A stretch of DNA of 64,000 nt, from contig CAKPLP010000001.1 in NCBI GenBank assembly GCA_934167695.1, forward strand, positions 31,806 to 95,805, in the 5' to 3' direction. Every line of letters begins with the position of its first letter. Position 1 is the stretch's first letter. The position numbers and the translations under genes were made by a program. This DNA comes from an uncultured Bacilli bacterium. GTDB taxonomy: Bacteria; Bacillota_I; Bacilli_A; RF39; UBA660. Of this stretch, positions 1 to 62,598 are shown one piece after another. A model generated the notes under the pieces. It had not been told where the DNA came from and did not search any database. It saw only the letters and a program-made list of their open reading frames with translations.

Positions 1-775
1 AAATAACCCCACAATCATTATAATTTTTACTTAAATCTATTTTATATTCACTCATCATAAATTCCTTTAAAATTTCTTTACCATAAAGACCTAAGTCACC
101 CGTAACAATTAAATCATAATAACTAGCATCTCTCTTAGTATCTTCCAAATGAGTTTTAATAGTATCAGCCGCTGCTCCAGCCATTACAGCTCCCATATCA
201 AGAGGATCATTCTGATTATAATCAACAACTTTACCTATTGTACCAGACTCTATTTTTATATCACTAACAACTGAGGAAACAACTGCACTTGCCCCTCCTG
301 TTGCAGTAAATGTTGCAGTCTTAGGTTTAGGTGCCCCATATTCAGTAGGATTTCTAAATTGTTTTTCACTAGACATATTATGAGAACTCACACTACATAA
401 ACATTTATTAATATACTTAGAAGAAACTAAACTAGCTCCAATAATAAGAGCTTCAACATTAGTACTACAAGCATTATAAATTCCAAAAAATGGCCTATTT
501 AAATCTTTAACAGCATAACTAGAGGAACAAACTTGATTTAATAAATCACCTGATATAACCAAATCAATATCATCCTTTGTTAACTTATTTTTCTTTATTG
601 CCATATTCATACTTTCATTCAATATTTTAACTTCAGCTTTTTCCCAAGTATCAGCAGAACAATATAAATTTTTATAACCTCTATCAAAATATTTACCAAG
701 TGGACCATTCTTTTCATAAGGACCAACAACAGTAGCAACTTCATTTAAATAAGCATTTTTAAATTTAAATGTCAT
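1..775 (-). CDS. spoVAD: stage V sporulation protein AD (SpoVAD), 5' part only; the gene runs off the window start
   Basis: The minus-strand translation starts MTFKFKNAYLNEVATVVGPYEKNGPLGKYFD... and has a thiolase/ketoacyl-synthase-like fold typical of SpoVAD. An RBS GGAGGTG sits 5 nt upstream of the ATG at 775..773. The ATGA overlap with the spoVAC stop indicates an operon. Confidence 0.75.
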   Translation of the reverse strand, partial: MTFKFKNAYLNEVATVVGPYEKNGPLGKYFDRGYKNLYCSADTWEKAEVKILNESMNMAIKKNKLTKDDIDLVISGDLLNQVCSSSYAVKDLNRPFFGIYNACSTNVEALIIGASLVSSKYINKCLCSVSSHNMSSEKQFRNPTEYGAPKPKTATFTATGGASAVVSSVVSDIKIESGTIGKVVDYNQNDPLDMGAVMAGAAADTIKTHLEDTKRDASYYDLIVTGDLGLYGKEILKEFMMSEYKIDLSKNYNDCGVI

Positions 776-1218
776 ACTAAGCCACCTCCAATAATTAAGC
801 GAATAACACCAAAGGTCCAAGCAGATACAACACCATATACAATAACAGTACCAGCAAGTTTAAAAGCATTAGCACCTATCCCAGTTACCAACCCTTCCTT
901 TCTATATTCTAAAGATGCACTCATCATAGAATGAGCAAATCCAGTGATAGGAATAATAAGTCCACATTTTCCAAGACTAACCCATTTATCAAAAAAGCCC
1001 ATAGCAGTAAATAAACAAGCTACAAATATTAATGTTACAATCATAAATACTCCAGCCTCTGATCTAGAAATATGAAATCCCATACAATAAAGTTCTATTA
1101 ATATTTCTCCTAATGATCCAATTATTCCACCAACAATAAAAGCTGTTAATGCATTATTTCCTCTTTTCTCCGTAGGTCTATGTTTTTTTACAATTTCTTC
1201 ATATTTTTTATTAACCAT
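772..1218 (-). CDS. spoVAC: stage V sporulation protein AC (SpoVAC)
   Basis: A 148-aa multi-TM protein, NALTAFIVGGIIGSLGEILIELY...GANAFKLAGTVIVYGV, matching the SpoVAC/SpoVAEb family. It sits between sigF and spoVAD, as in clostridial spoVA operons. Confidence 0.8.
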   Translation of the reverse strand: MVNKKYEEIVKKHRPTEKRGNNALTAFIVGGIIGSLGEILIELYCMGFHISRSEAGVFMIVTLIFVACLFTAMGFFDKWVSLGKCGLIIPITGFAHSMMSASLEYRKEGLVTGIGANAFKLAGTVIVYGVVSAWTFGVIRLIIGGGLV

Positions 1219-1270: not shown

Positions 1271-1952
1271 CTAAAGTCTTACCTTTAGTTTCTCAAGAAT
1301 CTTAGTTTCCTTTCTAGATACCTGTACTTGACTAATTCCCATCTCTCTAGAAATTTCACTCTGGGTATAACCATTAAAATATCTATCATAAATAATTTTT
1401 TTATCTTCTTCATTAAGAAGATTAATTTGTGTATTCAAATCCATTATATTACTATCCATATTTTTATCATAAACTTTTACAGAGTTATAATAATCACTGC
1501 TATCAGTATCACCAATCTCTTCATCTAAACTTTTTATATAATTAGTAGCTTCTTTTGCTAATGCTATCTTTTCTTCATCTATCTCTAAAAATATAGAAAC
1601 TTCCATATCAGATGGCTCTCTAGATAATTTTTGTCTTAACAATTCCCTTGCTTTTTCAATGGATTTATTAAGCTTTATAATATCTCTACTAATTTTTACA
1701 GTTCTATCTTCACGAATATATTTAGTAACTTCACCTAAAACATAATAATAAGCATAAGTAGAAAATTTAGCACTATTTACACTCTTACAAGAAGTCATAT
1801 TATAAATCACCGCTTTCATTATAATTTTTATAAGCCTTAACTAAAGCCATCATTCCAACTTGATATAAATCTTCATAATTACTATAATTACTAAATTTCT
1901 TAATAACAGAATTCACAACCCATTCATAATCCAAAATGAAGTCAATATCCAT
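1271..1952 (-). pseudogene. sigF: sporulation sigma factor SigF-like gene split over two frames (frameshifted or pseudogene)
   Basis: The N-terminal piece 1800..1952 encodes MDIDFILDYEWVVNSVIKKFSNYSNYEDLYQVGMMALVKAYKNYNESGDL*, which covers sigma region 2.1-2.2. It has a good RBS (GAGGAG) and ends at a TAA at 1800..1802. A 182-aa ORF in the +1 frame (1271..1819) follows, carrying FSTYAYYYVLGE (region 2.3/2.4) and a C-terminus ISQVQVSRKETKILEKLKV that closely matches SigF/SigG region 4. I re-read the codons by hand and the stop is as stated. Confidence 0.6.
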
Positions 1953-1962
1953 AATTATCTCC

Positions 1963-2298
1963 TCACAAATTTAATAAATTAAATGCATCCCTTCTATTAT
2001 CTACATAATATAAACGATTTTTTCCACTACCAATTCTTTCTTGATAGAAATTATTTAAACCATACATAACAACTCTACCACAATTAAGAAAAATTTCTAT
2101 CAATTTACTTTGTAATTTCGAGAGCAGACCTTCTTCTATTCTTAGTACACTACTAAAGTCAAAGGTATAATAACAAACACCCTGCTTATACAATAAATAA
2201 TCAATCTCCTCATTAAAAACATTAAAAGCAGTATTATCAAAAACTCCATCAAATTTTAAAAAAAGAATTCCTCTATTTACTTCAGTTGTTATACTCAT
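1963..2298 (-). CDS. spoIIAA: STAS-domain anti-sigma-factor antagonist (SpoIIAA-like)
   Basis: A 111-aa protein with a STAS fold signature (FDFSSVLRIEEGLLSKL) sits directly upstream of the sigF-like gene, 10 nt away. No SpoIIAB-like kinase ORF lies between them. Confidence 0.6.
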   Translation of the reverse strand: MSITTEVNRGILFLKFDGVFDNTAFNVFNEEIDYLLYKQGVCYYTFDFSSVLRIEEGLLSKLQSKLIEIFLNCGRVVMYGLNNFYQERIGSGKNRLYYVDNRRDAFNLLNL

Positions 2299-2349: not shown

Positions 2350-2392
2350 TTCGACAAAAGATTACATTTTTTTCGTTCGACATATTTCGACA
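2350..2392 (-). promoter_or_regulatory. three Spo0A boxes (TGTCGAA on the minus strand) upstream of the spoIIAA-sigF operon
   Basis: TTCGACA occurs on the plus strand at 2350-2356, 2376-2382 and 2386-2392, which is TGTCGAA in the orientation of the downstream minus-strand operon. TGTCGAA is the B. subtilis 0A-box consensus, and spoIIA is a classic Spo0A~P target. Confidence 0.5.
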
Positions 2393-2458: not shown

Positions 2459-3175
2459 TTATAACTCATTTTTCTCAAACTTATTTAACATTAATTTTAA
2501 AGCCTCATTAATATTAATAGAAGCTTCTTTTAAAAATTTTTCATACGTAACAACATTATCATCATTAGGAGTATCAGAAATACTTCTAAGAATTAGAAAT
2601 GGAATGTTAGAAAGAAAACAAACTTGAGCAATAGAAGCTCCTTCCATTTCAACACATAAAGCCTCAAACTTCAAATGAATTTTTTCAGCCATTTTTCTTT
2701 CAGTACAAAAAATATCACCAGAAGCAATAGTACCTAAAAAATAATTATATTTATGATTCTTTGTTAAATTAGAAAAAGTATTTTGAGCAAGTCTAATCAA
2801 ATACTCATCACTTTTAATAAATTTACCAATACGTGGAATATAACCCTTTTCGTGATTAAATCCTGTCAGATCAAAGTCATGTTGAACCAAATTCGTTCCA
2901 ACTACAACATCACCAATTTTTAATTTATCACTAATTCCACCTGCAACACCAACATTAAATATATAATCAACCTTTAAATTATCAATAAGTATTTGGGTTG
3001 TTCTAGCAGCATTAACTTTACCAACTCCACTTTCAACTAATATACAAAAAACAGAATTTACGATGCATTCATAAAATTTCAAATCAAATATTTGATATTC
3101 ATTAACTATAGAAATTCCATCTTTAAAAGCATCCATTTCCTCTTCCATAGCAAAAATAATTCCAACTCTTTTCAT
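2459..3175 (-). CDS. mtnN: 5'-methylthioadenosine/S-adenosylhomocysteine nucleosidase
   Basis: 238 aa. The sequence MKRVGIIFAMEEE...GVGKVNAA...CVEMEGASIAQVC is typical of the Pfs/MtnN nucleosidase fold. Confidence 0.85.
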   Translation of the reverse strand: MKRVGIIFAMEEEMDAFKDGISIVNEYQIFDLKFYECIVNSVFCILVESGVGKVNAARTTQILIDNLKVDYIFNVGVAGGISDKLKIGDVVVGTNLVQHDFDLTGFNHEKGYIPRIGKFIKSDEYLIRLAQNTFSNLTKNHKYNYFLGTIASGDIFCTERKMAEKIHLKFEALCVEMEGASIAQVCFLSNIPFLILRSISDTPNDDNVVTYEKFLKEASININEALKLMLNKFEKNEL

Positions 3176-3235
3176 CCTTCGCCTCCCAAAGATTATTATA
3201 CACTATATTAAAAAAACAAAAAATGACAACTTCAA

Positions 3236-4162
3236 CTAATTGTCATCTTTTTCTACTTTAACAAAAGTATAATTATTATCTTTATCTAACTTAAATGTAT
3301 ATTTATATTTTTCAAAATCCTTATAATTACTCTCAATAATACTTTGACTATCATTAACAATTCCACTTTTATATGGAGTGATACTCATAATAGCATCAAT
3401 ATTATCATTTAAAGAATTATACAAATTATAAGCATTATCTAAAGAAGAATTATTATCAGGAGCAGTAACACCATAATATACATCTACATAAGCAAAATCA
3501 CCATTCTTAACATAATTATTTTTATATGATATTACTGAACTAGCAGAAGTACCATCACACCCTAAAACAACATAATAAACTTTTTCATCATCATTATAAA
3601 CTAACATAGGACAATTAGAACCACTAATAGTTTTATTAATTGGAGTAGTACCAAATAAACTATTATACAATTCATTAACATCACTTACATTAATTTGAAA
3701 CTTAATATTACTACGATAAGATTCATAATTACTAGGAAGAAATATTTTGTTAACATCACCATTAACACTTTCTCTTTTTGAAGAATAAATTAATTCATTC
3801 AAAACCAATAATAATTTTTCATCATCACTTAAAATAGACTTTTTTAACAAATCAAAATTAAACTCAAAGCTTACAAAATCAGCATAAGCCTCTCCCGTAG
3901 CATCATATCTCCTACCAGAAAGCTGATCAATTTTTATATTTAAATTCTTTATAACATTAGCATCCGTTATCTTACTAGTAACATTAGAAGTATCCTTTTT
4001 TACATTTTTATCAGACTTCTCTTCAGTAGTAGTTTTATTATTAAAACTTACCCTCTTATCATAAATTATATATAACACTAACCCTAATATAACCAAAACT
4101 AAAAATATCACTAAAATAATTATTTTATTATTTAATTTCTTCTTTTCTAAATTATCATCCAT
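3236..4162 (-). CDS. hypothetical membrane-anchored protein (N-terminal TM, N/K/S/D-rich ectodomain)
   Basis: A 308-aa ORF with a hydrophobic segment IIILVIFLVLVILGLVLYIIY near the N-terminus. I recognise no motif. Confidence 0.45.
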   Translation of the reverse strand: MDDNLEKKKLNNKIIILVIFLVLVILGLVLYIIYDKRVSFNNKTTTEEKSDKNVKKDTSNVTSKITDANVIKNLNIKIDQLSGRRYDATGEAYADFVSFEFNFDLLKKSILSDDEKLLLVLNELIYSSKRESVNGDVNKIFLPSNYESYRSNIKFQINVSDVNELYNSLFGTTPINKTISGSNCPMLVYNDDEKVYYVVLGCDGTSASSVISYKNNYVKNGDFAYVDVYYGVTAPDNNSSLDNAYNLYNSLNDNIDAIMSITPYKSGIVNDSQSIIESNYKDFEKYKYTFKLDKDNNYTFVKVEKDDN

Positions 4163-4247: not shown

Positions 4248-5402
4248 CTATTCACCAACTTCACCAATTATCATTGATTGCATATTTCTTAAATATAATT
4301 GTACAAAATTTAATTTACTAATATCTTGTTTAATTACCAGATCTCCAACATAAACCGTTTTGTTTTTCTCTTTTACAGTAATTTTTCCAACTACACTTTC
4401 TTTTTTTGCAGGTAATTTTATATTATTAATTTTAGTAGTTATCTTATATTTTTTATTATTAACACCTTTATCCTGTAAAATATTAATATCATATTTTGGA
4501 TAAACATTTACATTTTTTATTGAGGCTTTATCTAAAGTTACTTTTTTTATAACATCATTACTTTTTTTAATATTTTGAACCTTTTTATTATTAAAACCAT
4601 AATCTAACAAACCCGTAGTTTCACTATTTCTAATTTTAGCAGTATTTTCTCCTAAAACAATGGCAATTAATCTCATCCCATTTCTTTTAGCCGTTGCGGC
4701 AAGACAATAACCAGCATTATCAGTATGTCCTGTTTTTAATCCATCAGCACCATCATATAAACGTACTAATTTATTAGTATTAACAAGCCAAAACTTATTT
4801 GGAGTATCAACTCTTAAATAATCCTCATAAACAGAAGAAAAATCTAAAATTTGTTTATGAGAAAGAAGCTCCCTTGCTATAATTGCCATATCATAAGCAC
4901 TAGAAAAATGACCATCTTCATCTAATCCAGTACAGTTTTTAAACACAGTGTTTTTTAAACCTAAATCCTGAACTTTCTTATTCATCATTTTTACAAATTT
5001 ACCTTCATTACCAGCAATATATTCAGCCATTGCAACAGTAGCATCATTCGCACTAGCCATACTAATTCCTTTAAATAAGTCCTTAACAGACATTTTTTCA
5101 TCTGCAGATAAATATATTTGAGAACCACCCATATCAGCAGCATTCTTACTTACTGTAACTATATCAGTCCATTTAATTTTATTACTTTCAATATTTTCCA
5201 ATATAATAATTTGAGCAACCATTTTAGTCATAGAAGCAACTGAAACTTGTTTATCCTTTTCCTTCTCATAAATAATAGTACCAGTAGACTCTTCCATTAA
5301 CACTCCACTAACAGCATTAACAATCAAATCATTCTCTGCAAAAGCATTAATAGGAAATAAACATAAAACCAATAAAACTAAAGAAAATAAAAACTTCTTC
5401 AT
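4248..5402 (-). CDS. dacF: serine-type D-alanyl-D-alanine carboxypeptidase (PBP5/DacF-like)
   Basis: It has a signal peptide and the SxxK (VASMTKM), SxN (SANDAT) and KTG (KTGHTDNAGY) motifs. It lies upstream of spoIIAA-sigF, as dacF does in Bacillus and Clostridium. Confidence 0.8.
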   Translation of the reverse strand: MKKFLFSLVLLVLCLFPINAFAENDLIVNAVSGVLMEESTGTIIYEKEKDKQVSVASMTKMVAQIIILENIESNKIKWTDIVTVSKNAADMGGSQIYLSADEKMSVKDLFKGISMASANDATVAMAEYIAGNEGKFVKMMNKKVQDLGLKNTVFKNCTGLDEDGHFSSAYDMAIIARELLSHKQILDFSSVYEDYLRVDTPNKFWLVNTNKLVRLYDGADGLKTGHTDNAGYCLAATAKRNGMRLIAIVLGENTAKIRNSETTGLLDYGFNNKKVQNIKKSNDVIKKVTLDKASIKNVNVYPKYDINILQDKGVNNKKYKITTKINNIKLPAKKESVVGKITVKEKNKTVYVGDLVIKQDISKLNFVQLYLRNMQSMIIGEVGE

Positions 5403-6941: not shown

Positions 6942-7610
6942 TTATACAAGTTCAAATATATAAATTGATTGTGTTGTATCACTATCTTTAGTACAAGTAA
7001 TTAAAGTTAATCCGTTAATATTATAATTAGGTCTATGAATAGCAACCACTCCTACCTTTGGTTGTACTTCTATTTTAACTAACTGATACTTATATTTTTT
7101 ATTATTATAAGTAACATAAGCATAATCACCTATTTTCAATTTATAAAGATAGGCAAAAAAAGAAATATAAGCATCACCAGAATGAGCAATTAATATAAAA
7201 TTACCATTTACTACATCAGGATAATCAGCATTATAAGAAACTGTAACATTATAACTAATATCATTATACTTTGATTCTTTATTTAAAAATCCTCTTTTTA
7301 ACCTTATTTTAGGAATTTCTAAATAACCTATATAATTATAATTACGTTTTGGAATACTACTGCTAATATTATTATTAGTGCTACCAGTGGAATTGGAATC
7401 ATTAGCACTAATATTACTAACCTCACCAGCATCATGCACCTTATCATCACTATTATCACTACTAGTTTGATCTAACATACTTAAACGAACACTTTCATAC
7501 ACTTCTTCTTTTAAAATCCTTAAATGTCCATACGATAAAACAAAAACTCCAACTAATATAAGTAAAGAGCCAAAAAGTAAAATTTGACTCTTTTTAACTT
7601 TTTTCATCAC
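6942..7610 (-). CDS. sortase (probably class D/B-like; divergent)
   Basis: It has an N-terminal TM anchor, the IPKIRLKRGF substrate-channel region, a His in NFILIAHSG and the catalytic Cys in LTLITC (TLxTC). The protein ends 16 aa after the Cys, with no obvious conserved Arg. Confidence 0.7.
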   Translation of the reverse strand: MMKKVKKSQILLFGSLLILVGVFVLSYGHLRILKEEVYESVRLSMLDQTSSDNSDDKVHDAGEVSNISANDSNSTGSTNNNISSSIPKRNYNYIGYLEIPKIRLKRGFLNKESKYNDISYNVTVSYNADYPDVVNGNFILIAHSGDAYISFFAYLYKLKIGDYAYVTYNNKKYKYQLVKIEVQPKVGVVAIHRPNYNINGLTLITCTKDSDTTQSIYIFELV

Positions 7611-7612
7611 CC

Positions 7613-9133
7613 TTAATTATTCTTCTTTGGTTTAGTAGTTACATAAATTACTGCAATACCAATTACTAGAATCATACCACCAATTATATAAATATATATT
7701 GGTATATTCTCTGCAGTATTTGGAACATCTGTAGTTGGAGTATTTTTCATAACTACTTTAGTTATTGTACCATCATCTTTTACTGTAAATGGTACAGATT
7801 CTTTATTAAGTTCATAACCATCTGGTGAAGTAATCTCTGATAATATATAATCCCCTGCAGGTAAACTTACATAATAAGGTTGATCAGTACTTGTCCATTT
7901 AGCAACTTCTTCTCCATTACTATTTTTAATAGATAATTGAGCTCCTGCAACTAGTTTACCATTACTAATATCAGTCTTACTAATTTGAGTAAAATTAACA
8001 TTAATAGTTTTATAAAGTGTTTTATTCACTGTTTTAGCAATAATTGGAATTTGAACACCAGGATCAGATGGAGTATAAGAATAAACCTCATTAGAAGCAT
8101 ATTTTATTGCAACCATAACTTGTAAATTAATTGAATCTGCATCCTTAATTTTTTCAACTGGAATTCTAACTCTAAATTTATTATTAGAAGAAGTAACTCC
8201 TGAACTAGAATTGCCACTTGCATCTACAACAACCGCATCATAAGTATTGTTAGCAAGTCCTATTTGATAATTAATAATAGATAAATTATTTCCTGTAATA
8301 GTAATCTCATTACTCTCTAAATATTTACCATCAGAAGTTAAAGAGTATTTAATACTATCTTTATCAATAGAAATACTAACAGCACCTTGATGTTCTTGAT
8401 TATATTGTACAGCATCATTCGCAAATAAATTTATTGTTCTTGCTACTTCACTTGCTTGACCAGAATCACCAGACAAAAGTAACTTCAACATATTAGAACT
8501 TTGATCACTACTTAATTGCTTATTACCATTACTATCTTTAGCTCCAACCATATCCATATAATACCATATAGCATATTGTGTTATGTATTTTTTACAAGCT
8601 TTAATTTTTTCATCTGCAGACATACCAATTTGCATATCATTAGAAGTAATTGTATAAGTATTATCATCACATCTACTTAAATATTTTGTTGAACCTTCTG
8701 AACCATAACCATTATTTAAAATATAAGCAAGTCCCGGAGCATAAGTATTAGAAACTAATTGAGGATCAGTATATTGAACAGGATTATTTGAAACCATTTT
8801 TTGACCTTCAATACAGTACATTTCATAATTTTGTCCATTTGTATCAGTTGCCTTAAAGTCATATGTCAATGATAACTCAGTTGTTTGATAATATTGATCA
8901 TTCATCAAACTCCAAGCCTTTCCCTGCTCTAATTTTGTTATATTAGAATTCAAAGTTGTTGGTACAATTTCATCAGTAGGCAATGCATAACTGCCCCCAA
9001 TACTATTAGAAGCCATAAACATCGTAAGCATAAAACAAATAAATGTAAATGCTAATACAATATTCGCACTAGACTGTTTATCCAATTTCCACCTTTTTCT
9101 TTTTACTTGTTTTTCACTATTATTAGAATTCAT
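7613..9133 (-). CDS. cell-wall-anchored thioester-domain (TED) adhesin, paralog 1
   Basis: It has a signal peptide and N-terminal YCIEGQ and TQYAIWYY motifs (TED Cys and TQxA(I/V)W Gln motifs). The C-terminus carries a CnaB/SpaA-type prealbumin-like domain (LVAGAQLSIKNSNGEEVAKW...GDYILSEITSPDGYEL). A sorting signal VPNTAEN, a hydrophobic stretch and a KPKKNN tail follow. Confidence 0.65.
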   Translation of the reverse strand: MNSNNSEKQVKRKRWKLDKQSSANIVLAFTFICFMLTMFMASNSIGGSYALPTDEIVPTTLNSNITKLEQGKAWSLMNDQYYQTTELSLTYDFKATDTNGQNYEMYCIEGQKMVSNNPVQYTDPQLVSNTYAPGLAYILNNGYGSEGSTKYLSRCDDNTYTITSNDMQIGMSADEKIKACKKYITQYAIWYYMDMVGAKDSNGNKQLSSDQSSNMLKLLLSGDSGQASEVARTINLFANDAVQYNQEHQGAVSISIDKDSIKYSLTSDGKYLESNEITITGNNLSIINYQIGLANNTYDAVVVDASGNSSSGVTSSNNKFRVRIPVEKIKDADSINLQVMVAIKYASNEVYSYTPSDPGVQIPIIAKTVNKTLYKTINVNFTQISKTDISNGKLVAGAQLSIKNSNGEEVAKWTSTDQPYYVSLPAGDYILSEITSPDGYELNKESVPFTVKDDGTITKVVMKNTPTTDVPNTAENIPIYIYIIGGMILVIGIAVIYVTTKPKKNN

Positions 9134-9198
9134 TTTCTCACCTTACCTTACTATCTACAGTATAACACAAAATAATTTTAAAACAAAATAATTTTAAA

Positions 9199-9236
9199 TA
9201 ATTTATAAAGTTTATACAAAAAAAGAATCTTACGAT
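9199..9236 (-). terminator. intrinsic terminator between the two adhesin genes
   Basis: On the minus strand, GAATCgtaaGATTC is followed by TTTTTTT. Confidence 0.5.
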
Positions 9237-9247
9237 TCCTTCTTCAT

Positions 9248-10804
9248 TTAATTTTTCTTCTTTTTAACAGTTACATAAATTACAGAAATACCAACTATTA
9301 AAATAAATCCACCAATTATATAAACATATCCCGGTATATTTTCTGCAGTATTTGGCACATCTGTAGTTGGAGTATTTTTCATAACTACTTTAGTTATTGT
9401 ACCATCATTTTTTACTTTAAATGCTACTGAAGCTTGATTAAGTTCATAACCATCTGGTGAAGTAATTTCTGATAATGTATAATCTCCTTCACTTAAATTA
9501 ACATAGTATGGATAATTATTAGTAATCCATCTAGCAATCTCCTTACCATTGCTATCTTTAATAGATAATTGAGCTCCTGAAACTAATTTATCATTAGTAA
9601 TATCAGTTTTTGTTATCTCAGTTAAATTAAGAGAAATAGACGTAGTAAATCCTGTTGTAGTTTTTGTTTTATCTGCAACAATAGGAGATTGAGCACCATC
9701 AACTGAAGGTGTATATTTATATACAACATCTTTAGAATATGAAACAGTCATAGCAATATCTAAACTAACAGAATCAATATTTTTTAACTTATCTAATGGT
9801 ATTCTAATTTTAAATTTATTATTAGCAGATACATTTTGTAAATTTGGATTAATATTTCCATCTGAATCAATAAATACAGCTTCTACATTATTTTTAGAAA
9901 AAGCAGCCGTATAAAATAAATTTAAATTTTTATTTGTTGAACTAACAGTAATAAAGTTACTTTCTAAATACTTACCATCATCTGTCACTGTATATTTAAT
10001 ATCAGAAGTATCAATAGAATAAGTACAAACCTCATGACTTTTATCATTATATAATTTTGCCTCATTAGCAAAATTTATAACTTGTTGTGCAACATCAGTT
10101 GCTTGAGTAACATTACCATTAGCATAATTTTCTAAATTTTGTCTTTTTGCTTCTGTTAGTTGAGTATTACCATTACTATCCTTATAACCAACCATATCTA
10201 AATAATACCATATAGCATATTGTGTTAAATACTTTTTACACGCTCTAACTCTATCTCCTACATCAACATTACCAGTACTTGAAATATTATCAATAGTACT
10301 AATAAAATAATTAGGAGCATTAGTATCACAAAACTTCATAAACGAACTATCTGTAGAATTTGGATAACCGTTATTTAAAATATAAGCAAGTCCCGGAGCA
10401 TAAGAATCGTCCATCATTTCATAATTACTATAAGTTATAGTACCCGTACCAATTCCTTTTTGACCTTCTACACAATACATATCATGTTCAACACCAGATG
10501 AGTCTGTTGCCTTAAAATCGTATGGCAAAGTTAACATTAAATTCTCATCACTTTCAGGTTCTGCTACATTTCTAATTAACCACCATCTATAAGTATTATC
10601 AAAATTAGTAAAATTAGATTTTAAAGTAGACATTTCTGGAGTAAGATTTAATGTAAAATTCTCATCTGCAAAACTGCTACCAATACTATTTGAAAACATA
10701 AACATTGTAAGCATAAAACAAATAAATGTAAATGCCAAAACTATATTAGCACTTGACTGCTTATCTAATTTCCATTTTCTCTTTTTATTACTTTCTTTTT
10801 TCAT
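9248..10804 (-). CDS. cell-wall-anchored thioester-domain (TED) adhesin, paralog 2
   Basis: Its N-terminal leader (KKRKWKLDKQSSANIVLAFTFICFMLTMFM) and C-terminal domain plus sorting signal are near-identical to paralog 1. YCVEGQ and TQYAIWYY are present. The middle of the protein has diverged. Confidence 0.65.
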   Translation of the reverse strand: MKKESNKKRKWKLDKQSSANIVLAFTFICFMLTMFMFSNSIGSSFADENFTLNLTPEMSTLKSNFTNFDNTYRWWLIRNVAEPESDENLMLTLPYDFKATDSSGVEHDMYCVEGQKGIGTGTITYSNYEMMDDSYAPGLAYILNNGYPNSTDSSFMKFCDTNAPNYFISTIDNISSTGNVDVGDRVRACKKYLTQYAIWYYLDMVGYKDSNGNTQLTEAKRQNLENYANGNVTQATDVAQQVINFANEAKLYNDKSHEVCTYSIDTSDIKYTVTDDGKYLESNFITVSSTNKNLNLFYTAAFSKNNVEAVFIDSDGNINPNLQNVSANNKFKIRIPLDKLKNIDSVSLDIAMTVSYSKDVVYKYTPSVDGAQSPIVADKTKTTTGFTTSISLNLTEITKTDITNDKLVSGAQLSIKDSNGKEIARWITNNYPYYVNLSEGDYTLSEITSPDGYELNQASVAFKVKNDGTITKVVMKNTPTTDVPNTAENIPGYVYIIGGFILIVGISVIYVTVKKKKN

Positions 10805-10866
10805 AAAAAACACCTTACCTTACAAATAATAATATAACACATATTTTTTGTTAAATAACCCAAAAG

Positions 10867-17552: not shown

Positions 17553-19016
17553 TTAAGCTACTTTTCTTTTTACTGTATATGAACTATCAACATCACCATA
17601 GCTACCTAATAATTCACTAACAGATGAAATAATACCATTTAATTTAGCATTTTCTTTACTTGCTTTAGCTTTTAACTTTTCATTTTCTTCTAAATACTCT
17701 TTATTAGTTGCCTCTAATCTTTCAGTCTTATCTTGAAGTCCATTTACTCTATTTTTTAGCATTCTATTTTCATCACCAAATTGACGATTTTGATTTATCA
17801 ATATATTAACTTTCTTTGTCTTTGACTCAAGTTCCATATTAACCTTATCAAGCTTTTGATTTAGCTCTTCAACCTTTTCCTCATAATTTGTAATTTTTTC
17901 TTGAGAAGCTTTTCTATCATTAACTAGTTTTGAAATCATACTACTTAATTGTTCAAATTTATCATTTTCACCATCATAAGAGTCATCAATCATACTAGAA
18001 ACTTCAGTGTTATCAGATGAACTAATTCCAAAGAAATCATCAAATACTTGATTATTATTTTCCTCTTCAACTGATTCTTCTTTACTTTCTACAACATTTT
18101 CACTATCAGCAAAGAAATCAGTTTTTTCATCTTTATTTTCTACTTCTTCTACATTTGTACTATTTTCTTCAGGATCAGGTAAAATAACATTATCCACATT
18201 TACTTCAGATAATTCACTAACATATTCATTACTATCACTTTTCTCTTCAGAAATTACCGGATTGTCCATCTTTTTAGGAGCAAACTTATCAAACATAGAA
18301 ACAGAATCATCAATTTTTCCAAATGTAAATACAGGCATACCAGATTTTTCTATATTTTGAACAAGAACTTTCTCTTCCCCTATTTGTTCTAACTTAGTAG
18401 TATCTGTAACAATATTACTATGAGTATAAACATTTACACCATCTGTTGCAATAAAACTACATTTATCGCCTATATTTTTAACTTCATAATGATCATTAAC
18501 TTTTTCTATTTTATAAATAGCAGCCTCATTATAAGCATCCTCATATATAAATTTTAAATCATCTACAGATACAGGATTAACATCTTTTGCAGTATTAATC
18601 ATTTGATCTTTTATACTTCTACTATCAACAGCAATTTCTTGAACTTTTAAAGCATCTGTTTTCAAACTTTGATTATTTTTAACACTAATCATATTACTAA
18701 CAGCTTTAACACCTACAAATAAATTGTTATCCATCTGTTTAATTTCACTAAACTCAGGAGGCATTAATATTTCACCTTTGTTAGTAATAAGTTGTAAGTT
18801 AGCTGACTCACCTGCACGTAAAGCTCTATGAAGAGTAACTAAAACATTATCACTAACTACAAAAAGATCCCCATCATTAAAATCCCTTTCAACATACAAA
18901 TCTTTTTGAATATTAATACCATCTGCTTTAATTATTCTAAGTTCTACAGCAGCATACTTATCTTGTTCAACCCTTGCTTTAATAATTTTTAATCCACTAT
19001 TTTGACCATCCATCAT
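17553..19016 (-). CDS. hypothetical protein with a globular N-domain, an acidic linker and a C-terminal coiled coil
   Basis: 487 aa counted from the ATG at 19016, which has an AGGTGGTGA RBS; the track's 19028 start is a GTG. The C-terminal ~120 aa are heptad-rich (EEKVEELNQKLDKVNMELESK...). Confidence 0.5.
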   Translation of the reverse strand: MMDGQNSGLKIIKARVEQDKYAAVELRIIKADGINIQKDLYVERDFNDGDLFVVSDNVLVTLHRALRAGESANLQLITNKGEILMPPEFSEIKQMDNNLFVGVKAVSNMISVKNNQSLKTDALKVQEIAVDSRSIKDQMINTAKDVNPVSVDDLKFIYEDAYNEAAIYKIEKVNDHYEVKNIGDKCSFIATDGVNVYTHSNIVTDTTKLEQIGEEKVLVQNIEKSGMPVFTFGKIDDSVSMFDKFAPKKMDNPVISEEKSDSNEYVSELSEVNVDNVILPDPEENSTNVEEVENKDEKTDFFADSENVVESKEESVEEENNNQVFDDFFGISSSDNTEVSSMIDDSYDGENDKFEQLSSMISKLVNDRKASQEKITNYEEKVEELNQKLDKVNMELESKTKKVNILINQNRQFGDENRMLKNRVNGLQDKTERLEATNKEYLEENEKLKAKASKENAKLNGIISSVSELLGSYGDVDSSYTVKRKVA

Positions 19017-19220
19017 CTTAGTCACCACCTATTATCACCATAATAACATAAAAAAAAATTCTAGTAAATGCCTTTTTTAAAATTTTTATTTTTTTCAATT
19101 TTTAGACAAAAAAAGAAGAAGACAATCACCTCTTCTTCAAAAAAATTAATTTTTTCTCTACTATAATCATAAGTTAGCTAATCTTATAAAAAAGTAGGCG
19201 TTTAATGTCATAAATAACTT

Positions 19221-26513: not shown

Positions 26514-27062
26514 TTATTCATTCTTATCAAGAGTTAACTCACCTGTTGTTATAACCAAGCTATCATAATTAGAATCAACTAAATTAAAACTTCTAGTTTT
26601 TGGTGCAGCATTAATAAGTTCATGAGTACTTGTCTCCTCAACTAAAGTAGTAGTTATTAAATCACTAGAGAATTCATGATTCCCATCAGAAGATAATTGC
26701 TTGAAATATACATTAATTGTACCATTAGCATCAACAGGCAAATTACTAAATACTACATTACCAGAATCATCAGAAGTCTGAACATTTCCATATTGATTAC
26801 CCTCAGCATCTACTCTAACAAAAGTAGCACCTACGATAGGAACACCAGCTACAGTTCCATCTTCTGAAACATGTAAAGTTAAAACACCTTTTGCTGCTAT
26901 CGTAAAGTTATAAATAGTTTCAGTATCAGTAACATTAATAGATGATGGTGTTATTGTAGAATTATCATAACCCAATACATTTGCAGTAACAGCATATTCA
27001 CCATTTAATACCTTTTCTTCCGCTACACCGTTAGTAATATTTATAGTGTATTTTTTTGACAT
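26514..27062 (-). CDS. hypothetical protein (possible beta-sandwich/CnaB-like fold); cargo of the recombinase element
   Basis: 182 aa, Thr/Val/Gly-rich (GTVAGVPIVGATFVRVDAEGNQYGNVQTSDDSGNVVFSNLP). Its stop overlaps the start of the next gene. Confidence 0.4.
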   Translation of the reverse strand: MSKKYTINITNGVAEEKVLNGEYAVTANVLGYDNSTITPSSINVTDTETIYNFTIAAKGVLTLHVSEDGTVAGVPIVGATFVRVDAEGNQYGNVQTSDDSGNVVFSNLPVDANGTINVYFKQLSSDGNHEFSSDLITTTLVEETSTHELINAAPKTRSFNLVDSNYDSLVITTGELTLDKNE

Positions 27063-27373
27063 AAAATAATTTTTCCTCCCTTAATAATTAAATCTTGATA
27101 ATATTTATCATGCAGAATAATCGTGGAGGTTTTTGTCAAATTATTATAAAAATCAAAATACAACTCATCCTGATTTTTAAACTTTTCTAAATAAGAATAC
27201 GGATAATAATAAGGACTTTTAATACCAATATAACCATCAAAATATTTATCTAAATATATATTAGTTTCCCCATAAATTTTTTTCTTATCTATAACATCAC
27301 CATTATTATTATAAATTAATAATTCAAATTCTCTATTTAATAATTGATTATTCAATCTGCATCTTATTAACAA
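27041..27373 (-). CDS. hypothetical protein; cargo of the recombinase element
   Basis: 110 aa, overlapping the downstream gene by 22 nt. Confidence 0.35.
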   Translation of the reverse strand: MLIRCRLNNQLLNREFELLIYNNNGDVIDKKKIYGETNIYLDKYFDGYIGIKSPYYYPYSYLEKFKNQDELYFDFYNNLTKTSTIILHDKYYQDLIIKGGKIILCQKNTL

Positions 27374-27448: not shown

Positions 27449-28999
27449 TCACTTTCCAAAGGTTAAAATCAAATTTATTCTCTTATCGTCAAATATTTCA
27501 ATTTTTTCAATCAACTGAACAATTAATTCCCTACTTACATTAGACATACTTAAATAATCATTAATAAATTGTTCTACAAAAAATTTTTCTTTAACTTTTC
27601 TCTTTTCCAAACTAGTTTTCTTTAAATAAACCCGTCTACTATTTTTAATTTCTAAATTTTTATATATCCTATCTTTAACCCTAGAAAATTGTTCATCATC
27701 TATAACCTTATTTAACTTATCTATATATACTTCATCCAAATTTTCATTCAACTTATTAATTTCTAAATTAAGCATATTAATTTCTTCTTGTATATTATCA
27801 GTTTGCATGTTAGATAATTCTTCATTAATACTTTTCTTTATTTTTTCAACATCAATAAAATTAAACAAAATTTTTTTTAATTCACTAATAATCTTTTTCT
27901 CCAACAAGTCATAATTATTAGAATGCGTTGTACATACTTTCTCCTTAATATATGCTCTATAATAATTACAAACAGTATAACAATTATTATCTTTTTTTCT
28001 CCTTGAAGTAACAGATATTCTATGACCACAATCACCACAATATAACAATCCATCTAATAAATGTTTTTCTTTTTTTTCACAACGACCCACATTTTTAGGA
28101 ATCAACTTCTGCACCTCAAAAAAAGTATTTCTATCAATAATTGCTTCATGAGTATTTTCAACTACTATATATTTACTAGGATCATTTCTAGCAATTTTCT
28201 TTATTTTATAATTAATTTTATATCTTTTGCCTTGAACCAAATCCCCTATATAAATTCTATTAGTTAAAATATCCTTAATCGTTTTAGCATTCCAACTTCC
28301 AATTTTTAATGAACTATTCTTTTTCCAAACAAAATTATAATATGCAGAAGGATTTTTTACATTTTCAATAGTCAATATTTTTGCAATTTTAAAACAAGTT
28401 AACCCTTCTAAACACATTTTATAAATTCTTTTAACAACTTCAGCTTGGGAAGAATCTATAATCAAATGATTCTTATCAAGAGGATCTTTTTTATATCCAA
28501 ATGCTACTCTACCACTCACCCACTTCCCTTCTTTTTTTTTAGCCATCAAACTAGATCTTATTTTTTTTGAAATATCTTTAGCATACATATCGTTCATTAT
28601 AGCCTTAAAAGGAGCTATATCATTATTGGAACTATCTAAAAAGGTATCAATATTATCAGTAATAGCAACATATCTGACATTATGAGAAGGAAAATATTTT
28701 TCTATAAAGTTTCCTGTTTCAATATAATCCCTACCCAATCTAGACATATCTTTCGTAAGAACCATATTAACATTATTATTTTCAATATCACTAAGTAACT
28801 TCTTAAACGCAGGTCTATTAAAATTCGTACCACTATAACCATCATCTATATATATATCATAAATAGATAAATTATTTTCTTTTACATATTGAAGTAGTAA
28901 ACTCTTTTGATTAGTAATACTTTCACTTTCTTCTTTACTATCTAAATCCTCATGTGACAATCTAATATAAACACCAACATTAAAGACTATATTATTCAA
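27449..28999 (-). CDS. large serine recombinase (resolvase/invertase catalytic domain, recombinase domain and zinc ribbon)
   Basis: The N-terminus GVYIRLSHEDLD...SITNQ has the catalytic Ser in the Y.R.S motif. A central recombinase domain is followed by a Cys cluster YCGDCGHRISV...C..C. It has a TTG start with an AAGGGA RBS. Confidence 0.85.
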   Translation of the reverse strand: MNNIVFNVGVYIRLSHEDLDSKEESESITNQKSLLLQYVKENNLSIYDIYIDDGYSGTNFNRPAFKKLLSDIENNNVNMVLTKDMSRLGRDYIETGNFIEKYFPSHNVRYVAITDNIDTFLDSSNNDIAPFKAIMNDMYAKDISKKIRSSLMAKKKEGKWVSGRVAFGYKKDPLDKNHLIIDSSQAEVVKRIYKMCLEGLTCFKIAKILTIENVKNPSAYYNFVWKKNSSLKIGSWNAKTIKDILTNRIYIGDLVQGKRYKINYKIKKIARNDPSKYIVVENTHEAIIDRNTFFEVQKLIPKNVGRCEKKEKHLLDGLLYCGDCGHRISVTSRRKKDNNCYTVCNYYRAYIKEKVCTTHSNNYDLLEKKIISELKKILFNFIDVEKIKKSINEELSNMQTDNIQEEINMLNLEINKLNENLDEVYIDKLNKVIDDEQFSRVKDRIYKNLEIKNSRRVYLKKTSLEKRKVKEKFFVEQFINDYLSMSNVSRELIVQLIEKIEIFDDKRINLILTFGK

Positions 29000-33892: not shown

Positions 33893-36475
33893 CTAGCCCT
33901 TAATCTCATCCTCTGTTACAGCTTTACCACCAAATCCTTCTAAAAGAGCATTACTAACATTTTGTCCACCCGGTATAATTACTGCTGGCTTTTCTACCTC
34001 TTGTTTTACATCTGGAATAATAGCAGATTGATTAGAAGCAAATTGTTGATTCAAAGAAACATTAGTACTGTTTTCAGGAGGAGCCATATTAGGTACAAAT
34101 ACATCTACATCAGGGATAATTGATTGAGTTTGATTATTATCAGTACCATTTACAATTTGATTTAATTCATTATTTTCTAAATCGGCACTACCTCCTAAAT
34201 CAGGAATACTAGAAGTAGTATCAACAACATTATCAACTTGTTTATTATTTACATCAACCTCTGCAACAGGACTAACAGCCTCCATTAAATTAGGTTTCTC
34301 ATCTTTAAACAAAGGTATAGCAACATCATTAGTAGGATTATTATTAACTATATTATTTGATAATGAATTATTAAATGGAGAAACATTAGTAGATTGTTCA
34401 ACAAATTTTGGAATTTGAATCTGATCATCACTACTAGATTCATTATCTTCTTCATTTATTTCATCTTCTTCTGTATCTTCATCATCTTCGTCAACTTCTT
34501 CTTCGACTTCATCATCCTCAGCATCAACAAAAGTGACATTATTCTTCAAAGTACTTTCTACATTATTAACACTATCGGTATTATCAACATTTTTATTTTC
34601 ACTACCTAGATCAACAGGAGAAGATACAGACTCTTCTTTAGAAGCTTCTTCTTTTTCAGACTCTAATTCACTAACATCTTCATCATCACTTTCTTCATCC
34701 TCATCATCCTGATAATTACCTTGATTACCATCCCAAATACGTACAACATCACAGTTACCACTTCTAGGTTCAGGATTAGGCATTTCCATCTTAACTATTA
34801 AAGGTATCTTAAAAGCTTGACCAAATGCTAAACAAGTTCCTGCCTGTAATGATTTTTGTTTTTCTACAATTTCTTCACTAATATTAGGAACCATTTTTCT
34901 AATATATTCAACATCAGCAGGGTGATTCATTTTAAAGATCAAGAAGTTAGAGCATTGAGAAATAACTGTATCACTCATTTCAACAGGTCTTTGGGTTATC
35001 AAACCAAGAATAACACCATATTTACGACCCTCTTTTGCAATTCTATCAAAAATATTATATCCAATTAAGAAAGTATCAGTATCATTTTGAATATATCTAT
35101 GAGCTTCTTCAACTATTAAATGAAAAGGTATGCTCGCTCTATCACCTAGACTCTTCGCAAAAGTAAAAATAAGTCTAGAATAAACTTTAACAATAACCTT
35201 TGCAAATGTATCATCCACATCATCTAAATTAATATTAACTAATTGAAATTTTCTACCATTAACAATTAATAAAGAAGATATAAACTGCTCTAAACTAACA
35301 TATTCTTTATAATCAAAAAACTTAGCATTATTACCAGTAATTAAAGAATGAAGTCTTACCTTAATAGTAACAGAATCACCATAAGTATTTTCATTTCTTA
35401 ACCATCCTTCACTTATTAAAGTAAAATTCAAAGCTTTCTCCAAAGTATCTAAAGTATAAAAAACATTGCCACTTGGTTCATAAGAATCATATTCATCCTT
35501 TATAAAAGATGATACATATTCAGTCATTAAAACACTTTCAGTAAAATTACCAAACTGATCTATCAAAAAGCAATCTCTAAACTTTCTTGTATAACCAATA
35601 CCTTTAAGTTCAGTCTCTAAGTTAAACTCTGGAGTTGAACAACTTGCTATTATAGAAAAAATCTCATTTCTCTTATTAGGAGATGTTTCATTAGTATATA
35701 AAATAGTCATAATAGCCTTTGCAATCAAATGATTTTTATAACTATTAGAATCAACCCCTTTTTCAGAAAAAATTCTAGCAAGCTTTAACATTCTTTCTAT
35801 AATAGGTAATTGTGAATGACTAGTAACATTTAAAAGAAGAGCTAAATCATCAACATTAAGTAAATAAATAGGAATTCTTAAAGCTTCACCTAATCCTTCA
35901 GACTCATTAGTAGTAATAAATCTATAATTATAATTAGGATTAATAGTAGACAAATTTCTAAAAGCATTATAATACTCACCAGATGAATCAAACATTAAAA
36001 TATTTGATTTATATGGAAATAATCTTTGATCTTGAAACATATTCTGAAAAATTCTACTAACACCACAACTCTTTCCAGAACCACTATTACCAAAAATAGC
36101 AAAATGGTTACTAAAGAATCCATTAACATTCATAAAAACTTCTTTATCATTATAAAAAGGGCTCTTACCAAACAACATATAACCACGTCTATTTTTACCT
36201 GTAATAAGAGGTATTTCCTTTGGAGAAATAACCCTAACACTAGCATCTAAAGTTGGTTTACGAATTACTCCACCAAGTAACCCCTTATCTGTAATTTCCC
36301 CCAATAGACGAACCTTTACTATATCCTTTGAAATATCATCAACTTCACCTAATATTTTTTTATCTTTATCCTCAAAAATGATATGTAAATTCATCAAATT
36401 AAAAGTTATATCAGCATTTTCTTTTAACTTAACATCACAAACTCTATCCCCTATATAAACAATTTTATCAAACAT
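33893..36475 (-). CDS. HerA/FtsK-superfamily (DUF87-like) P-loop ATPase with a long acidic disordered C-terminal tail
   Basis: An N-terminal HAS-barrel-like segment is followed by Walker A GNSGSGKS, Walker B HLIVEEAHRY and the ITQRP motif. About 280 C-terminal residues are D/E/N/S-rich and low-complexity. Confidence 0.65.
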   Translation of the reverse strand: MFDKIVYIGDRVCDVKLKENADITFNLMNLHIIFEDKDKKILGEVDDISKDIVKVRLLGEITDKGLLGGVIRKPTLDASVRVISPKEIPLITGKNRRGYMLFGKSPFYNDKEVFMNVNGFFSNHFAIFGNSGSGKSCGVSRIFQNMFQDQRLFPYKSNILMFDSSGEYYNAFRNLSTINPNYNYRFITTNESEGLGEALRIPIYLLNVDDLALLLNVTSHSQLPIIERMLKLARIFSEKGVDSNSYKNHLIAKAIMTILYTNETSPNKRNEIFSIIASCSTPEFNLETELKGIGYTRKFRDCFLIDQFGNFTESVLMTEYVSSFIKDEYDSYEPSGNVFYTLDTLEKALNFTLISEGWLRNENTYGDSVTIKVRLHSLITGNNAKFFDYKEYVSLEQFISSLLIVNGRKFQLVNINLDDVDDTFAKVIVKVYSRLIFTFAKSLGDRASIPFHLIVEEAHRYIQNDTDTFLIGYNIFDRIAKEGRKYGVILGLITQRPVEMSDTVISQCSNFLIFKMNHPADVEYIRKMVPNISEEIVEKQKSLQAGTCLAFGQAFKIPLIVKMEMPNPEPRSGNCDVVRIWDGNQGNYQDDEDEESDDEDVSELESEKEEASKEESVSSPVDLGSENKNVDNTDSVNNVESTLKNNVTFVDAEDDEVEEEVDEDDEDTEEDEINEEDNESSSDDQIQIPKFVEQSTNVSPFNNSLSNNIVNNNPTNDVAIPLFKDEKPNLMEAVSPVAEVDVNNKQVDNVVDTTSSIPDLGGSADLENNELNQIVNGTDNNQTQSIIPDVDVFVPNMAPPENSTNVSLNQQFASNQSAIIPDVKQEVEKPAVIIPGGQNVSNALLEGFGGKAVTEDEIKG

Positions 36476-62249: not shown

Positions 62250-62333
62250 ATATTTATCCCTCTTTTCTAATAGTCTATTATATTATACTATATTTACACC
62301 TTTTTTCAAAGTCTAAAATAAAAAAGAAAAGAA

Positions 62334-62588
62334 CTAATTGTTCTCTTCATCAGATAAATATTCCTGTATATCTTGCCATTCTTGATCAGTTAAATCAAAC
62401 AAAGTATTTATACCATTATTATTTTCAACTCTCAAAGTATAAACCAATATATTATCACTATCATCTTCCTCGTTTTTAGTATAAACAATATAATGTGAAC
62501 CTTCAACACTTTCAAGTTCAGTTACTAATTCTACTTTTTCTTCACTACCATCATCATTAGTAATTGTAATTATTTTATCATCATCCAT
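62334..62588 (-). CDS. DUF1292/YrzB-like small acidic protein
   Basis: 84 aa; the pattern ITITNDDGSEEKVELV...YIVY resembles the UPF0473 family. Confidence 0.45.
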   Translation of the reverse strand: MDDDKIITITNDDGSEEKVELVTELESVEGSHYIVYTKNEEDDSDNILVYTLRVENNNGINTLFDLTDQEWQDIQEYLSDEENN

Positions 62589-62598
62589 AAAATCACCA

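Follow-up and report, generated by a model that had tools for sequence, protein, structure and literature searches.

What becomes of the first switch of endospore formation when its sigma-factor gene lies in two pieces and the gene for its partner-switch kinase is missing from the locus? Among the compartment-specific switches of endospore formation, sigma-F comes first, and the SpoIIAA/SpoIIAB/SpoIIE partner-switch is the textbook circuit. The question is raised by a 64-kb stretch of DNA from an uncultured Bacilli bacterium (hereafter the window, meaning that whole stretch; G+C about 26%), on the minus strand of which a gene for a STAS-domain protein is followed by two short open reading frames (ORFs), ORF1 and ORF2, that resemble successive parts of SigF. 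The gene structure is very likely one of two conserved cistrons, and there are good grounds to think that sigma-F in this lineage is encoded as two separate, translationally coupled polypeptides, a natural two-polypeptide sigma-F. The elements concerned are the following.

1963–2298, minus strand: gene for a STAS-domain protein of 111 amino acids, from direct reading, with a GAGGTGGGAG ribosome-binding site
1800–1952, minus strand: ORF1 (sigF-N), 50 amino acids, sigma regions 2.1–2.2, with its own GAGGAG ribosome-binding site
1271–1798, minus strand: ORF2 (sigF-C), 175 amino acids, sigma regions 2.3–2.4, 3 and 4; a start at ATG 1819, further upstream, would give 182 amino acids instead
1796–1811, minus strand: ORF1/ORF2 junction, with GGTGAT at 1806–1811, TAA at 1800–1802, one nucleotide, and ATG at 1796–1798

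Ten nucleotides (nt) separate the TGA of the STAS gene from the ATG of ORF1, whose product ends in ...NYNESGDL before the TAA at 1802–1800. The reading frame of ORF2, +1 relative to that of ORF1, is open from 1840, contains ATGs at 1819 and 1798, and ends at 1271. Direct reading bears out what an earlier, sequence-only reading of this DNA had described: a 111-amino-acid STAS protein, a sigma gene beginning 10 nt later, a sigma ORF split over two frames, and a 50-amino-acid first piece with its own ribosome-binding site, here GAGGAG, ending at the TAA of 1800..1802. That reading had started the second piece at ATG 1819; the conserved start is instead ATG 1798, which follows the TAA after a single nucleotide and is preceded by GGTGAT. 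An exact look-up of the 182-amino-acid ORF gave no match, gene callers having chosen the 175-amino-acid start, and the 16 closest ORF2 homologues all start about 10 codons before the motif KFSTYA.

Profile comparisons indicate what the two pieces encode. ORF1 matches Pfam Sigma70_r2 (E 2.7e-5) and positions 23–60 of the NCBIfam SigF profile, and ORF2 matches positions 60–230 of the same profile (126 bits) along with Sigma70_r3 (1.7e-10) and Sigma70_r4 (3.8e-13); the two segments are collinear, with neither gap nor overlap. SigF is the best NCBIfam match for ORF2 by itself, and when the halves are concatenated it is again the top family at 148.6 bits, ahead of SigG (116.5) and SigB (76.8). ORF1 and ORF2 together therefore appear to be one diverged SigF-like sigma factor, and aligning the fragments to SigF and SigG models, as the sequence-only reading had proposed, puts the cut at position 60 of the SigF profile. 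ORF1 forms a stand-alone family of 47–58 amino acids with 12 clusters at 90% identity. The sigma factors of this clade, split or not, begin at region 2.1 and lack about 30 N-terminal residues of canonical SigF; the clade sigma has about 211 amino acids, compared with 237–255 in canonical SigF (window 1796–1952 compared with L041, L044, L049 and L069). A cysteine in or near codon 4 of ORF2 (window 1787–1798) is kept in many split lineages, with variable flanking residues. Among homologues P0002–P0007 and P0015 it mostly occurs as M-x-x-C, and in P0002 as N-S-C further in.

The position of the cut can be related to the structure of known sigma factors. The full-length unsplit relative P0017 has the solved sigma-F of G. 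stearothermophilus (1L0O_C) as its best PDB match (E 3e-24), and its loop stretch aligns opposite KSVDKFDLSYDVKFSTYA of 1L0O_C. Unsplit relatives read ...LYQVGMMGL(x)KA(x)KNY, followed by 5–8 variable residues and then KFSTYAYYY... In the anatomy of sigma-70 proteins, that variable stretch forms the loop linking the helices of regions 2.2 and 2.3. Alignment thus places the cut in this loop (the FDxxxxx-KFSTYA loop), inside the sigma-2 domain. An AlphaFold model of the concatenated halves, with a mean predicted local distance difference test (pLDDT) score of 76, contains helices at 10–19, 26–43 and 62–80. Residues 44–61 are disordered, and pLDDT falls below 50 at 48–58, which corresponds to the tail of ORF1 and the head of ORF2. 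By fold, the model most closely matches S. aureus sigma-B in an RNA polymerase open complex. Compared with the unsplit loop, the junction residues, comprising an often acidic ORF1 tail and a variable ORF2 head, are additions.

The split recurs well beyond the window, in at least 10 diverged lineages. The identical 175-amino-acid ORF2 beginning at ATG 1798 is present on 23 contigs from different samples, and there are records of the exact 50-amino-acid ORF1 product on 37 contigs and of the STAS protein on 22. Split loci were fetched from different samples and assemblers (L084/85, L086/87, L088, L089, L090, L091, L001, L092, L094 and L095, with L091 and L001 being two assemblies of one lineage). 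Each shows the same order: a STAS gene (104–119 amino acids), an ORF for regions 2.1–2.2 (47–56 amino acids), an ORF of about 175 amino acids, and then spoVA genes, with spoVAC-spoVAD-spoVAEB downstream wherever the contig extends that far. The 16 closest ORF2 homologues (59–100% identity; hit ranks 1–15 and 18) are all 167–179 amino acids long and have no match to region 2 (PF04542), and more distant relatives are single proteins, mostly of 201–225 amino acids, with region 2 included. The search for an intact gene in related genomes, suggested by the sequence-only reading, therefore finds the closest relatives split too and the more distant ones with a single ORF. Every member of the split clade encodes the sigma factor in two ORFs, not as a single polypeptide.

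Broader searches delimit this family. Among the matches listed in a scan of GTDB genomes, most were canonical Bacillus and Paenibacillus sigF loci and unsplit relatives, and only L001 was split. A scan of JGI metagenomes with the ORF1 profile returned one relative only, L096, which is unsplit. Searching 1.84 billion representative proteins with ORF1 gave two clusters at 50% identity as the sole coherent stand-alone family; 11 other short matches read from that search are heterogeneous fragments or sporadic frameshifts that form no family. On a single contig, L093:3001-3641, the sigma gene is broken elsewhere (72 + 122 amino acids) and spoVAC is truncated. In contrast to the conserved split, this break resembles an isolated error or a genuine pseudogene.

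The junction between the two ORFs differs among the split lineages as follows.

L084, L087 and L092: 8-nt overlap
L089 and L090: 14-nt overlap
L088: 17-nt overlap
Window: 1-nt gap
L091/L001: 7-nt gap, with a TGA in the +1 frame after the ORF1 stop
L094 (L094:1008-1022): 9-nt gap, AGT TAG TGA TAA AAT ATG, with ORF2 in the frame of ORF1 (0) behind three different in-frame stops
L095 (L095:1648-1652): TAATG stop-start overlap, with ORF2 in the −1 frame

The frame of ORF2 relative to ORF1 is thus +1 in the window and most lineages, 0 in L094 and −1 in L095. It opens only past the ORF1 stop in L091, L001 and L094, leaving no open overlap for a shift. The last sense codon before that stop also varies (TTA, GAG, GAA, GCA, ATC, ATG or AGT). 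What is conserved is the stop codon, a Shine–Dalgarno (SD)-like element, and an ATG about 10 codons before KFSTYA, despite variable neighbouring residues. The SD-like element is purine-rich and lies 3–11 nt upstream of the ORF2 ATG in all eight lineages tested. Its duplex energy with the anti-SD ranges from −6.9 to −13.5 kcal/mol across these lineages, against a background median of about −3, placing the elements in the top 0–10% of internal windows and making them comparable to the ribosome-binding sites of ORF1. The GGTGAT of the window, at −13.5 kcal/mol, beats every internal window of the gene. Compared across lineages, the junction appears to evolve like an intercistronic spacer, in which length and frame vary and the stop, the SD-like element and the ATG stay. 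This pattern is best read as the signature of two translationally coupled cistrons.

Purifying selection acts on both sigma halves and on the STAS gene. In Nei–Gojobori pairwise comparisons of seven lineages, the ratio of nonsynonymous to synonymous divergence (dN/dS) is 0.06–0.37 for ORF1, 0.12–0.38 for ORF2 and 0.10–0.43 for the STAS gene, at a synonymous divergence (dS) of about 0.6 or more that has reached saturation in several pairs. Of the two halves, ORF1 is the better conserved, with an amino-acid identity of 68–87% compared with 52–74% for ORF2. Neither half shows further stops or indels.

The core split clade is monophyletic in neighbour-joining trees of both the sigma factor (60/60 bootstraps) and SpoVAD (50/50), with the unsplit L006 as its sister in the latter. 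The split also occurs in a second lineage, L092 (L092:2626-3691; ORF1 clusters P0140, P0144 and P0145), found on 23 contigs. This lineage is placed among unsplit ones in the sigma and SpoVAD trees and is monophyletic with the core in 0–1 replicates. In its ORF2, STAS and SpoVAD sequences, L092 groups with unsplit lineages. Its ORF1, by contrast, bears the core signature DYEWVVHSVI and is closer to the core-clade ORF1s than to the N-termini of the apparent relatives of L092. The split may have arisen once, with poor tree resolution, or twice, or it may have spread by old recombination; a tree artefact is also possible for L092. The high synonymous divergence in both halves excludes a recent transfer, so any transfer must be old.

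The STAS protein encoded upstream of the two halves is itself divergent. As a single sequence, it stays below the Pfam STAS threshold (E=0.073, 13.3 bits vs a cut-off of 22.6). A profile built from the clade aligns with canonical SpoIIAA by hhalign over its full length (probability 96.3%, E 1.7e-9, 107 columns), and the best solved-structure matches are those of SpoIIAA, 1TH8_B (1.6e-5), 1TID and 1AUZ. In SpoIIAA, the phosphorylatable serine sits in a DSSG motif at the N-terminus of helix 2; the window protein has IEEG in its place. The sequence-only reading had put a glutamate at the phospho-Ser column, which MAFFT reproduces and HMMER does not, aligning a glycine there; a serine or threonine is found in neither alignment. 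The clade has mostly Glu or Asp at this column, with Thr in 1 of 13 close relatives (L008). The motif runs from DSSG in canonical proteins through DIKG, DSYG and DCYG in deeper unsplit lineages and TDEN and VEEG in closer relatives to IEEG, IDES and ISEE in the split clade. The STAS protein is thus a SpoIIAA homologue without the phosphorylatable serine, and with Glu or Gly in its place it would have to act independently of a kinase.

The kinase gene is likewise missing. A tblastn search with five SpoIIAB sequences detected SpoIIAB in all 60 canonical sigF loci (Bacillus, Paenibacillus, Clostridia and Erysipelotrichales), and found none in the 64-kb window and none in the 31 uncultured-clade loci (20 unsplit or related and 11 split). 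The absence of SpoIIAB noted in the sequence-only reading therefore extends from the locus to the window and to all relatives fetched, in line with what PMC10868615 describes for RF39. Because both split and unsplit clade loci are without SpoIIAB, loss of the kinase spans a much wider group than the split. The unsplit loci L002, L010, L013, L014, L015 and L017 have no STAS gene upstream of the sigma gene, which implies that some lineages can do without the Ser-less STAS protein. PMC10868615 describes spoIIAB and spoIIE as reduced or absent in the order RF39, and predicts that its members sporulate "with markedly different regulation". The classical partner-switch control module appears to be gone, given that SpoIIAB is missing at the locus and that spoIIAB and spoIIE are reported absent in RF39 by that account. 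Loss of the two genes in RF39 is thus already published there.

The setting of the locus is that of a spoIIA operon. Its flanking features are the following.

772–1218, minus strand: spoVAC (Pfam SpoVAC_SpoVAEB 1.4e-30), the next gene downstream of ORF2
1–775, minus strand: 5' part of spoVAD, which runs off the window (Pfam SpoVAD 4e-96); ATGA overlap with spoVAC
4248–5402, minus strand: upstream dacF-like gene for a D-Ala-D-Ala carboxypeptidase (Peptidase_S11 4e-78 and PBP5_C), a synteny marker of the spoIIA locus
2386–2392, 2376–2382 and 2350–2356, minus strand: cluster of three perfect TGTCGAA Spo0A boxes in the promoter region of the operon

Together, the dacF-like gene upstream, the spoVA genes downstream and the Spo0A-box promoter reproduce the synteny of the spoIIA locus, and the position of spoVAC is identical in all related loci. 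The sequence-only reading had called this synteny clostridial; the order dacF-STAS-sigma-spoVAC-spoVAD stands, but the relatives are uncultured Bacilli, not Clostridia. A 160-nt intergenic region precedes the STAS gene. The whole window contains four TGTCGAA heptamers on both strands, three of which are clustered at 2350–2392. Of 15 split and unsplit loci, 14 retain the proximal box at an unchanged spacing, the exception being L011, and a second box is present at the same spacing in about two-thirds of the 15. In B. subtilis, spoIIA is controlled by Spo0A; the conserved predicted boxes match that control and support a working sporulation operon. The other long genes of the window are all intact, including spoIVA (364 bits), and the retention of spoIVA and spoVA genes claimed by the sequence-only reading is confirmed, with spoIVA, spoVAC and spoVAD intact. 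No sigma paralogue lies within the 64-kb window. The locus is best explained as the putative spoIIA-equivalent operon of uncultured, AT-rich, reduced-genome gut Bacilli. Between the dacF-like gene and the STAS gene, window positions 2459–4162 hold a gene resembling methylthioadenosine/S-adenosylhomocysteine (MTA/SAH) nucleosidase genes and a gene for a 308-amino-acid membrane protein with no family match. The nucleosidase-like gene also adjoins the STAS gene in L088, and does not in L084, L087 and L089.

The selection on both halves, the coupling signals and the structural logic suggest that the two products probably come together again as a functional sigma-F. When sporulation begins, the operon would be transcribed in a Spo0A-dependent manner, and ribosomes ending ORF1 would re-initiate at the adjacent ATG, yielding roughly equal amounts of both chains. 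In all sigma-70 proteins, the region 2.2 helix docks on the beta-prime clamp helices of RNA polymerase. The ORF1 mini-subunit (regions 2.1–2.2) would supply this docking helix, and the large ORF2 subunit would supply −10 recognition and melting (FSTYAYYY...), sigma-3 and sigma-4. Through non-covalent contacts, both chains would rebuild the helical bundle of sigma-2, whether free or bound to core RNA polymerase, and would direct sigma-F-type transcription. Certain points weigh against this interpretation. The 148.6 bits of the concatenated halves miss the equivalog cut-off of 321 bits for TIGR02885 (spore_sigF), so that SigF orthology rests on best-hit rank and synteny. In addition, the cut falls inside sigma-2 and not between domains, an arrangement for which no characterised natural precedent was found.

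Several other explanations have to be set against reassembly. The two products could have separate functions, with ORF2 acting alone, or with a borrowed region 2.1–2.2, as a truncated sigma factor and ORF1 as an independent RNA polymerase-binding regulator. This is unlikely, as is its specific form in which the ORF1 product is a decoy for the beta-prime clamp helices that partly replaces the lost anti-sigma factor. The idea draws on the greater conservation of ORF1 (68–87% vs 52–74%), on the absence of a classical anti-sigma factor from the locus, and on the signature DYEWVVHSVI, which is common to two lineages without a sister relationship in the trees of ORF2 and SpoVAD and hints at special constraints. 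It has to contend with general knowledge of sigma factors, in which regions 2.3–2.4 pack on 2.1–2.2 and region 2.2 is the main core-binding determinant, so that a sigma factor without region 2.2 should bind core poorly. Moreover, ORF1 retains exactly the residues of unsplit relatives, and the tight adjacency and coupling signals suggest equal co-production. A further proposal gives the split itself an adaptive role: after the loss of SpoIIAB and SpoIIE, assembly of the halves would have become the regulated step that confines sigma-F to the forespore, with the Ser-less STAS protein holding one half until asymmetric division. This remains a doubtful suggestion. If it were true, the L092-type split with the same ORF1 signature would reflect an independent origin or the horizontal spread of a useful allele.

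The remaining explanations concern whether there are two functional genes at all. A prfB-like +1 frameshift at the ORF1 stop, yielding a single full-length sigma-F, is superficially attractive in the window, where GGTGAT directly precedes UUA UAA U and ORF2 is read in the +1 frame, a relation common to most lineages. In both prfB and the window, an SD-like element precedes an in-frame stop with a +1 continuation; the difference is that here the frame is variable and neither a conserved shift site nor a conserved slippery sequence is present, and it is the ORF2 start codon that is conserved. The three frame relations (+1, 0 behind three consecutive in-frame stops in L094, and −1 in L095) and the closed downstream frame across the ORF1 stop in L091, L001 and L094 lead to the rejection of programmed recoding, which is very improbable. 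Of the two-piece or recoded sigma factor envisaged by the sequence-only reading, only the two-piece form survives. Decay of a pseudogene in a lineage losing sporulation, another of its options, has equally little to recommend it. Related orders have repeatedly lost sporulation according to PMC10868615, and the unrelated contig L093 does have a sporadic break at another site and a truncated spoVAC. The dN/dS of both halves, well below 1 at near-saturated dS, nonetheless rejects this reading, and the split persists without extra stops or indels across a clade whose members are only 52–74% identical, with spoVAC, spoVAD, spoVAEB, spoIVA and the Spo0A boxes intact. A sequencing or assembly indel, also raised earlier, can be given almost no credence. 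The source is probably a metagenome assembly, and contrary to the earlier statement that the junction has no homopolymer, an A5 run (1825–1829) lies in the zone where the frames overlap. The run is immaterial, as independent assemblies reproduce the split: the same junction stands on dozens of contigs from various samples and assemblers, and diverged species have the split with different junction sequences, which rejects sequencing error. Two further candidates were discarded, transcriptional slippage because the A runs are just 4–5 nt long and unconserved, and a skin-like DNA insertion because the ORFs abut or overlap.

Comparison with known systems helps to place a two-polypeptide sigma-F. 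Like the spoIIA operon of B. subtilis (SpoIIAA-SpoIIAB-sigma-F), the locus lies at the same genomic position, with dacF upstream and spoVA downstream, and has Spo0A boxes upstream, a SpoIIAA-homologous STAS gene first and a sigma gene of the SigB/F/G family last. Unlike that operon, it has no SpoIIAB, no phospho-Ser, a sigma factor without about 30 N-terminal residues, and a sigma factor cut into two genes. The sigK gene of B. subtilis and C. difficile is interrupted in the genome by the skin element, the excision of which by a recombinase restores one ORF. There, a large DNA insertion separates the pieces, whereas here they abut or overlap, so that an in-frame fusion by DNA rearrangement is impossible. 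The SigO–RsoA pair (YvrI–YvrHa) of B. subtilis is described in PMC7826278 and PMC10141391 as a characterised natural two-subunit sigma factor with sigma-2 and sigma-4 on separate polypeptides (original work by MacLellan et al. 2009, as cited in PMC7826278). As in that pair, two adjacent, conserved and here probably co-expressed polypeptides appear to divide the sigma functions, the small one carrying the core-binding function of region 2. SigO–RsoA is ECF-like (extracytoplasmic function), responds to acid stress and is described as dividing sigma-2 from sigma-4; the present locus differs in encoding a group-3 sporulation sigma factor that is cut within sigma-2 and has SigF, SigG and SigB as its best families. 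A further difference is that the unsplit ancestral state is still visible here in sister lineages. At the level of organisms, the orders RF39, RFN20 and ML615J-28, as treated in PMC10868615, are likewise uncultured, small-genome, AT-rich, host-associated Bacilli with reduced sporulation gene sets. That study works at the level of gene presence and absence, its sporulation section mentions no split sigF or Ser-less SpoIIAA, and 'sigF' and 'spoIIAA' occur 0 times in its main text. The literature searched yielded no account of a sigF gene that is split, truncated or frameshifted.

Other parts of the window hold features unrelated to the sigma locus. At 6942–10813, a sortase gene is followed by genes for two paralogous surface proteins of about 510 amino acids with thioester (TED) and SpaA domains, which looks like a pilus or adhesin cluster. 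The orders RFN20 and ML615J-28 are reported to lack srtA/B, so the sortase argues against both as the source of the window. Together with spoVAD, it suggests that the window may come from RF39 or a neighbouring order. A large serine recombinase of 516 amino acids (Resolvase, Recombinase and Zn ribbon) is encoded at 27449–28999, adjoining small unannotated ORFs (26514–27373) and near an rpoZ-like ORF, and may belong to an integrated element. Two tandem acetate kinase genes (393 and 396 amino acids; Pfam 502 and 482 bits) occupy 61068–63789. A HerA/DUF87-type ATPase of 860 amino acids, the C-terminal half of which is long, acidic and of low complexity, is encoded at 33893–36475, and 17553–19028 encodes a 491-amino-acid protein that matches no family and has a C-terminus that is acidic, rich in Glu and Lys and possibly coiled-coil.

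For surveys of gene content in uncultured gut Bacilli, the practical consequence is that sigF may be scored as truncated or its 50-amino-acid half overlooked. If the two chains reassemble, sigma-2 tolerates a natural break at the 2.2/2.3 loop, which would offer a ready design for split-sigma logic gates. They would then also represent a second, independent multi-subunit bacterial sigma factor, with unsplit sister lineages available for comparison, and a minimal system for forespore-specific transcription without the classical partner-switch. The clade keeps sigma-F, the Spo0A boxes and late sporulation genes, but it has dropped the kinase at the locus and, if it belongs to RF39, the phosphatase as well, lost the phosphorylation site of SpoIIAA and cut the sigma factor in its core-binding domain, which suggests that the start of spore formation has been rewired.

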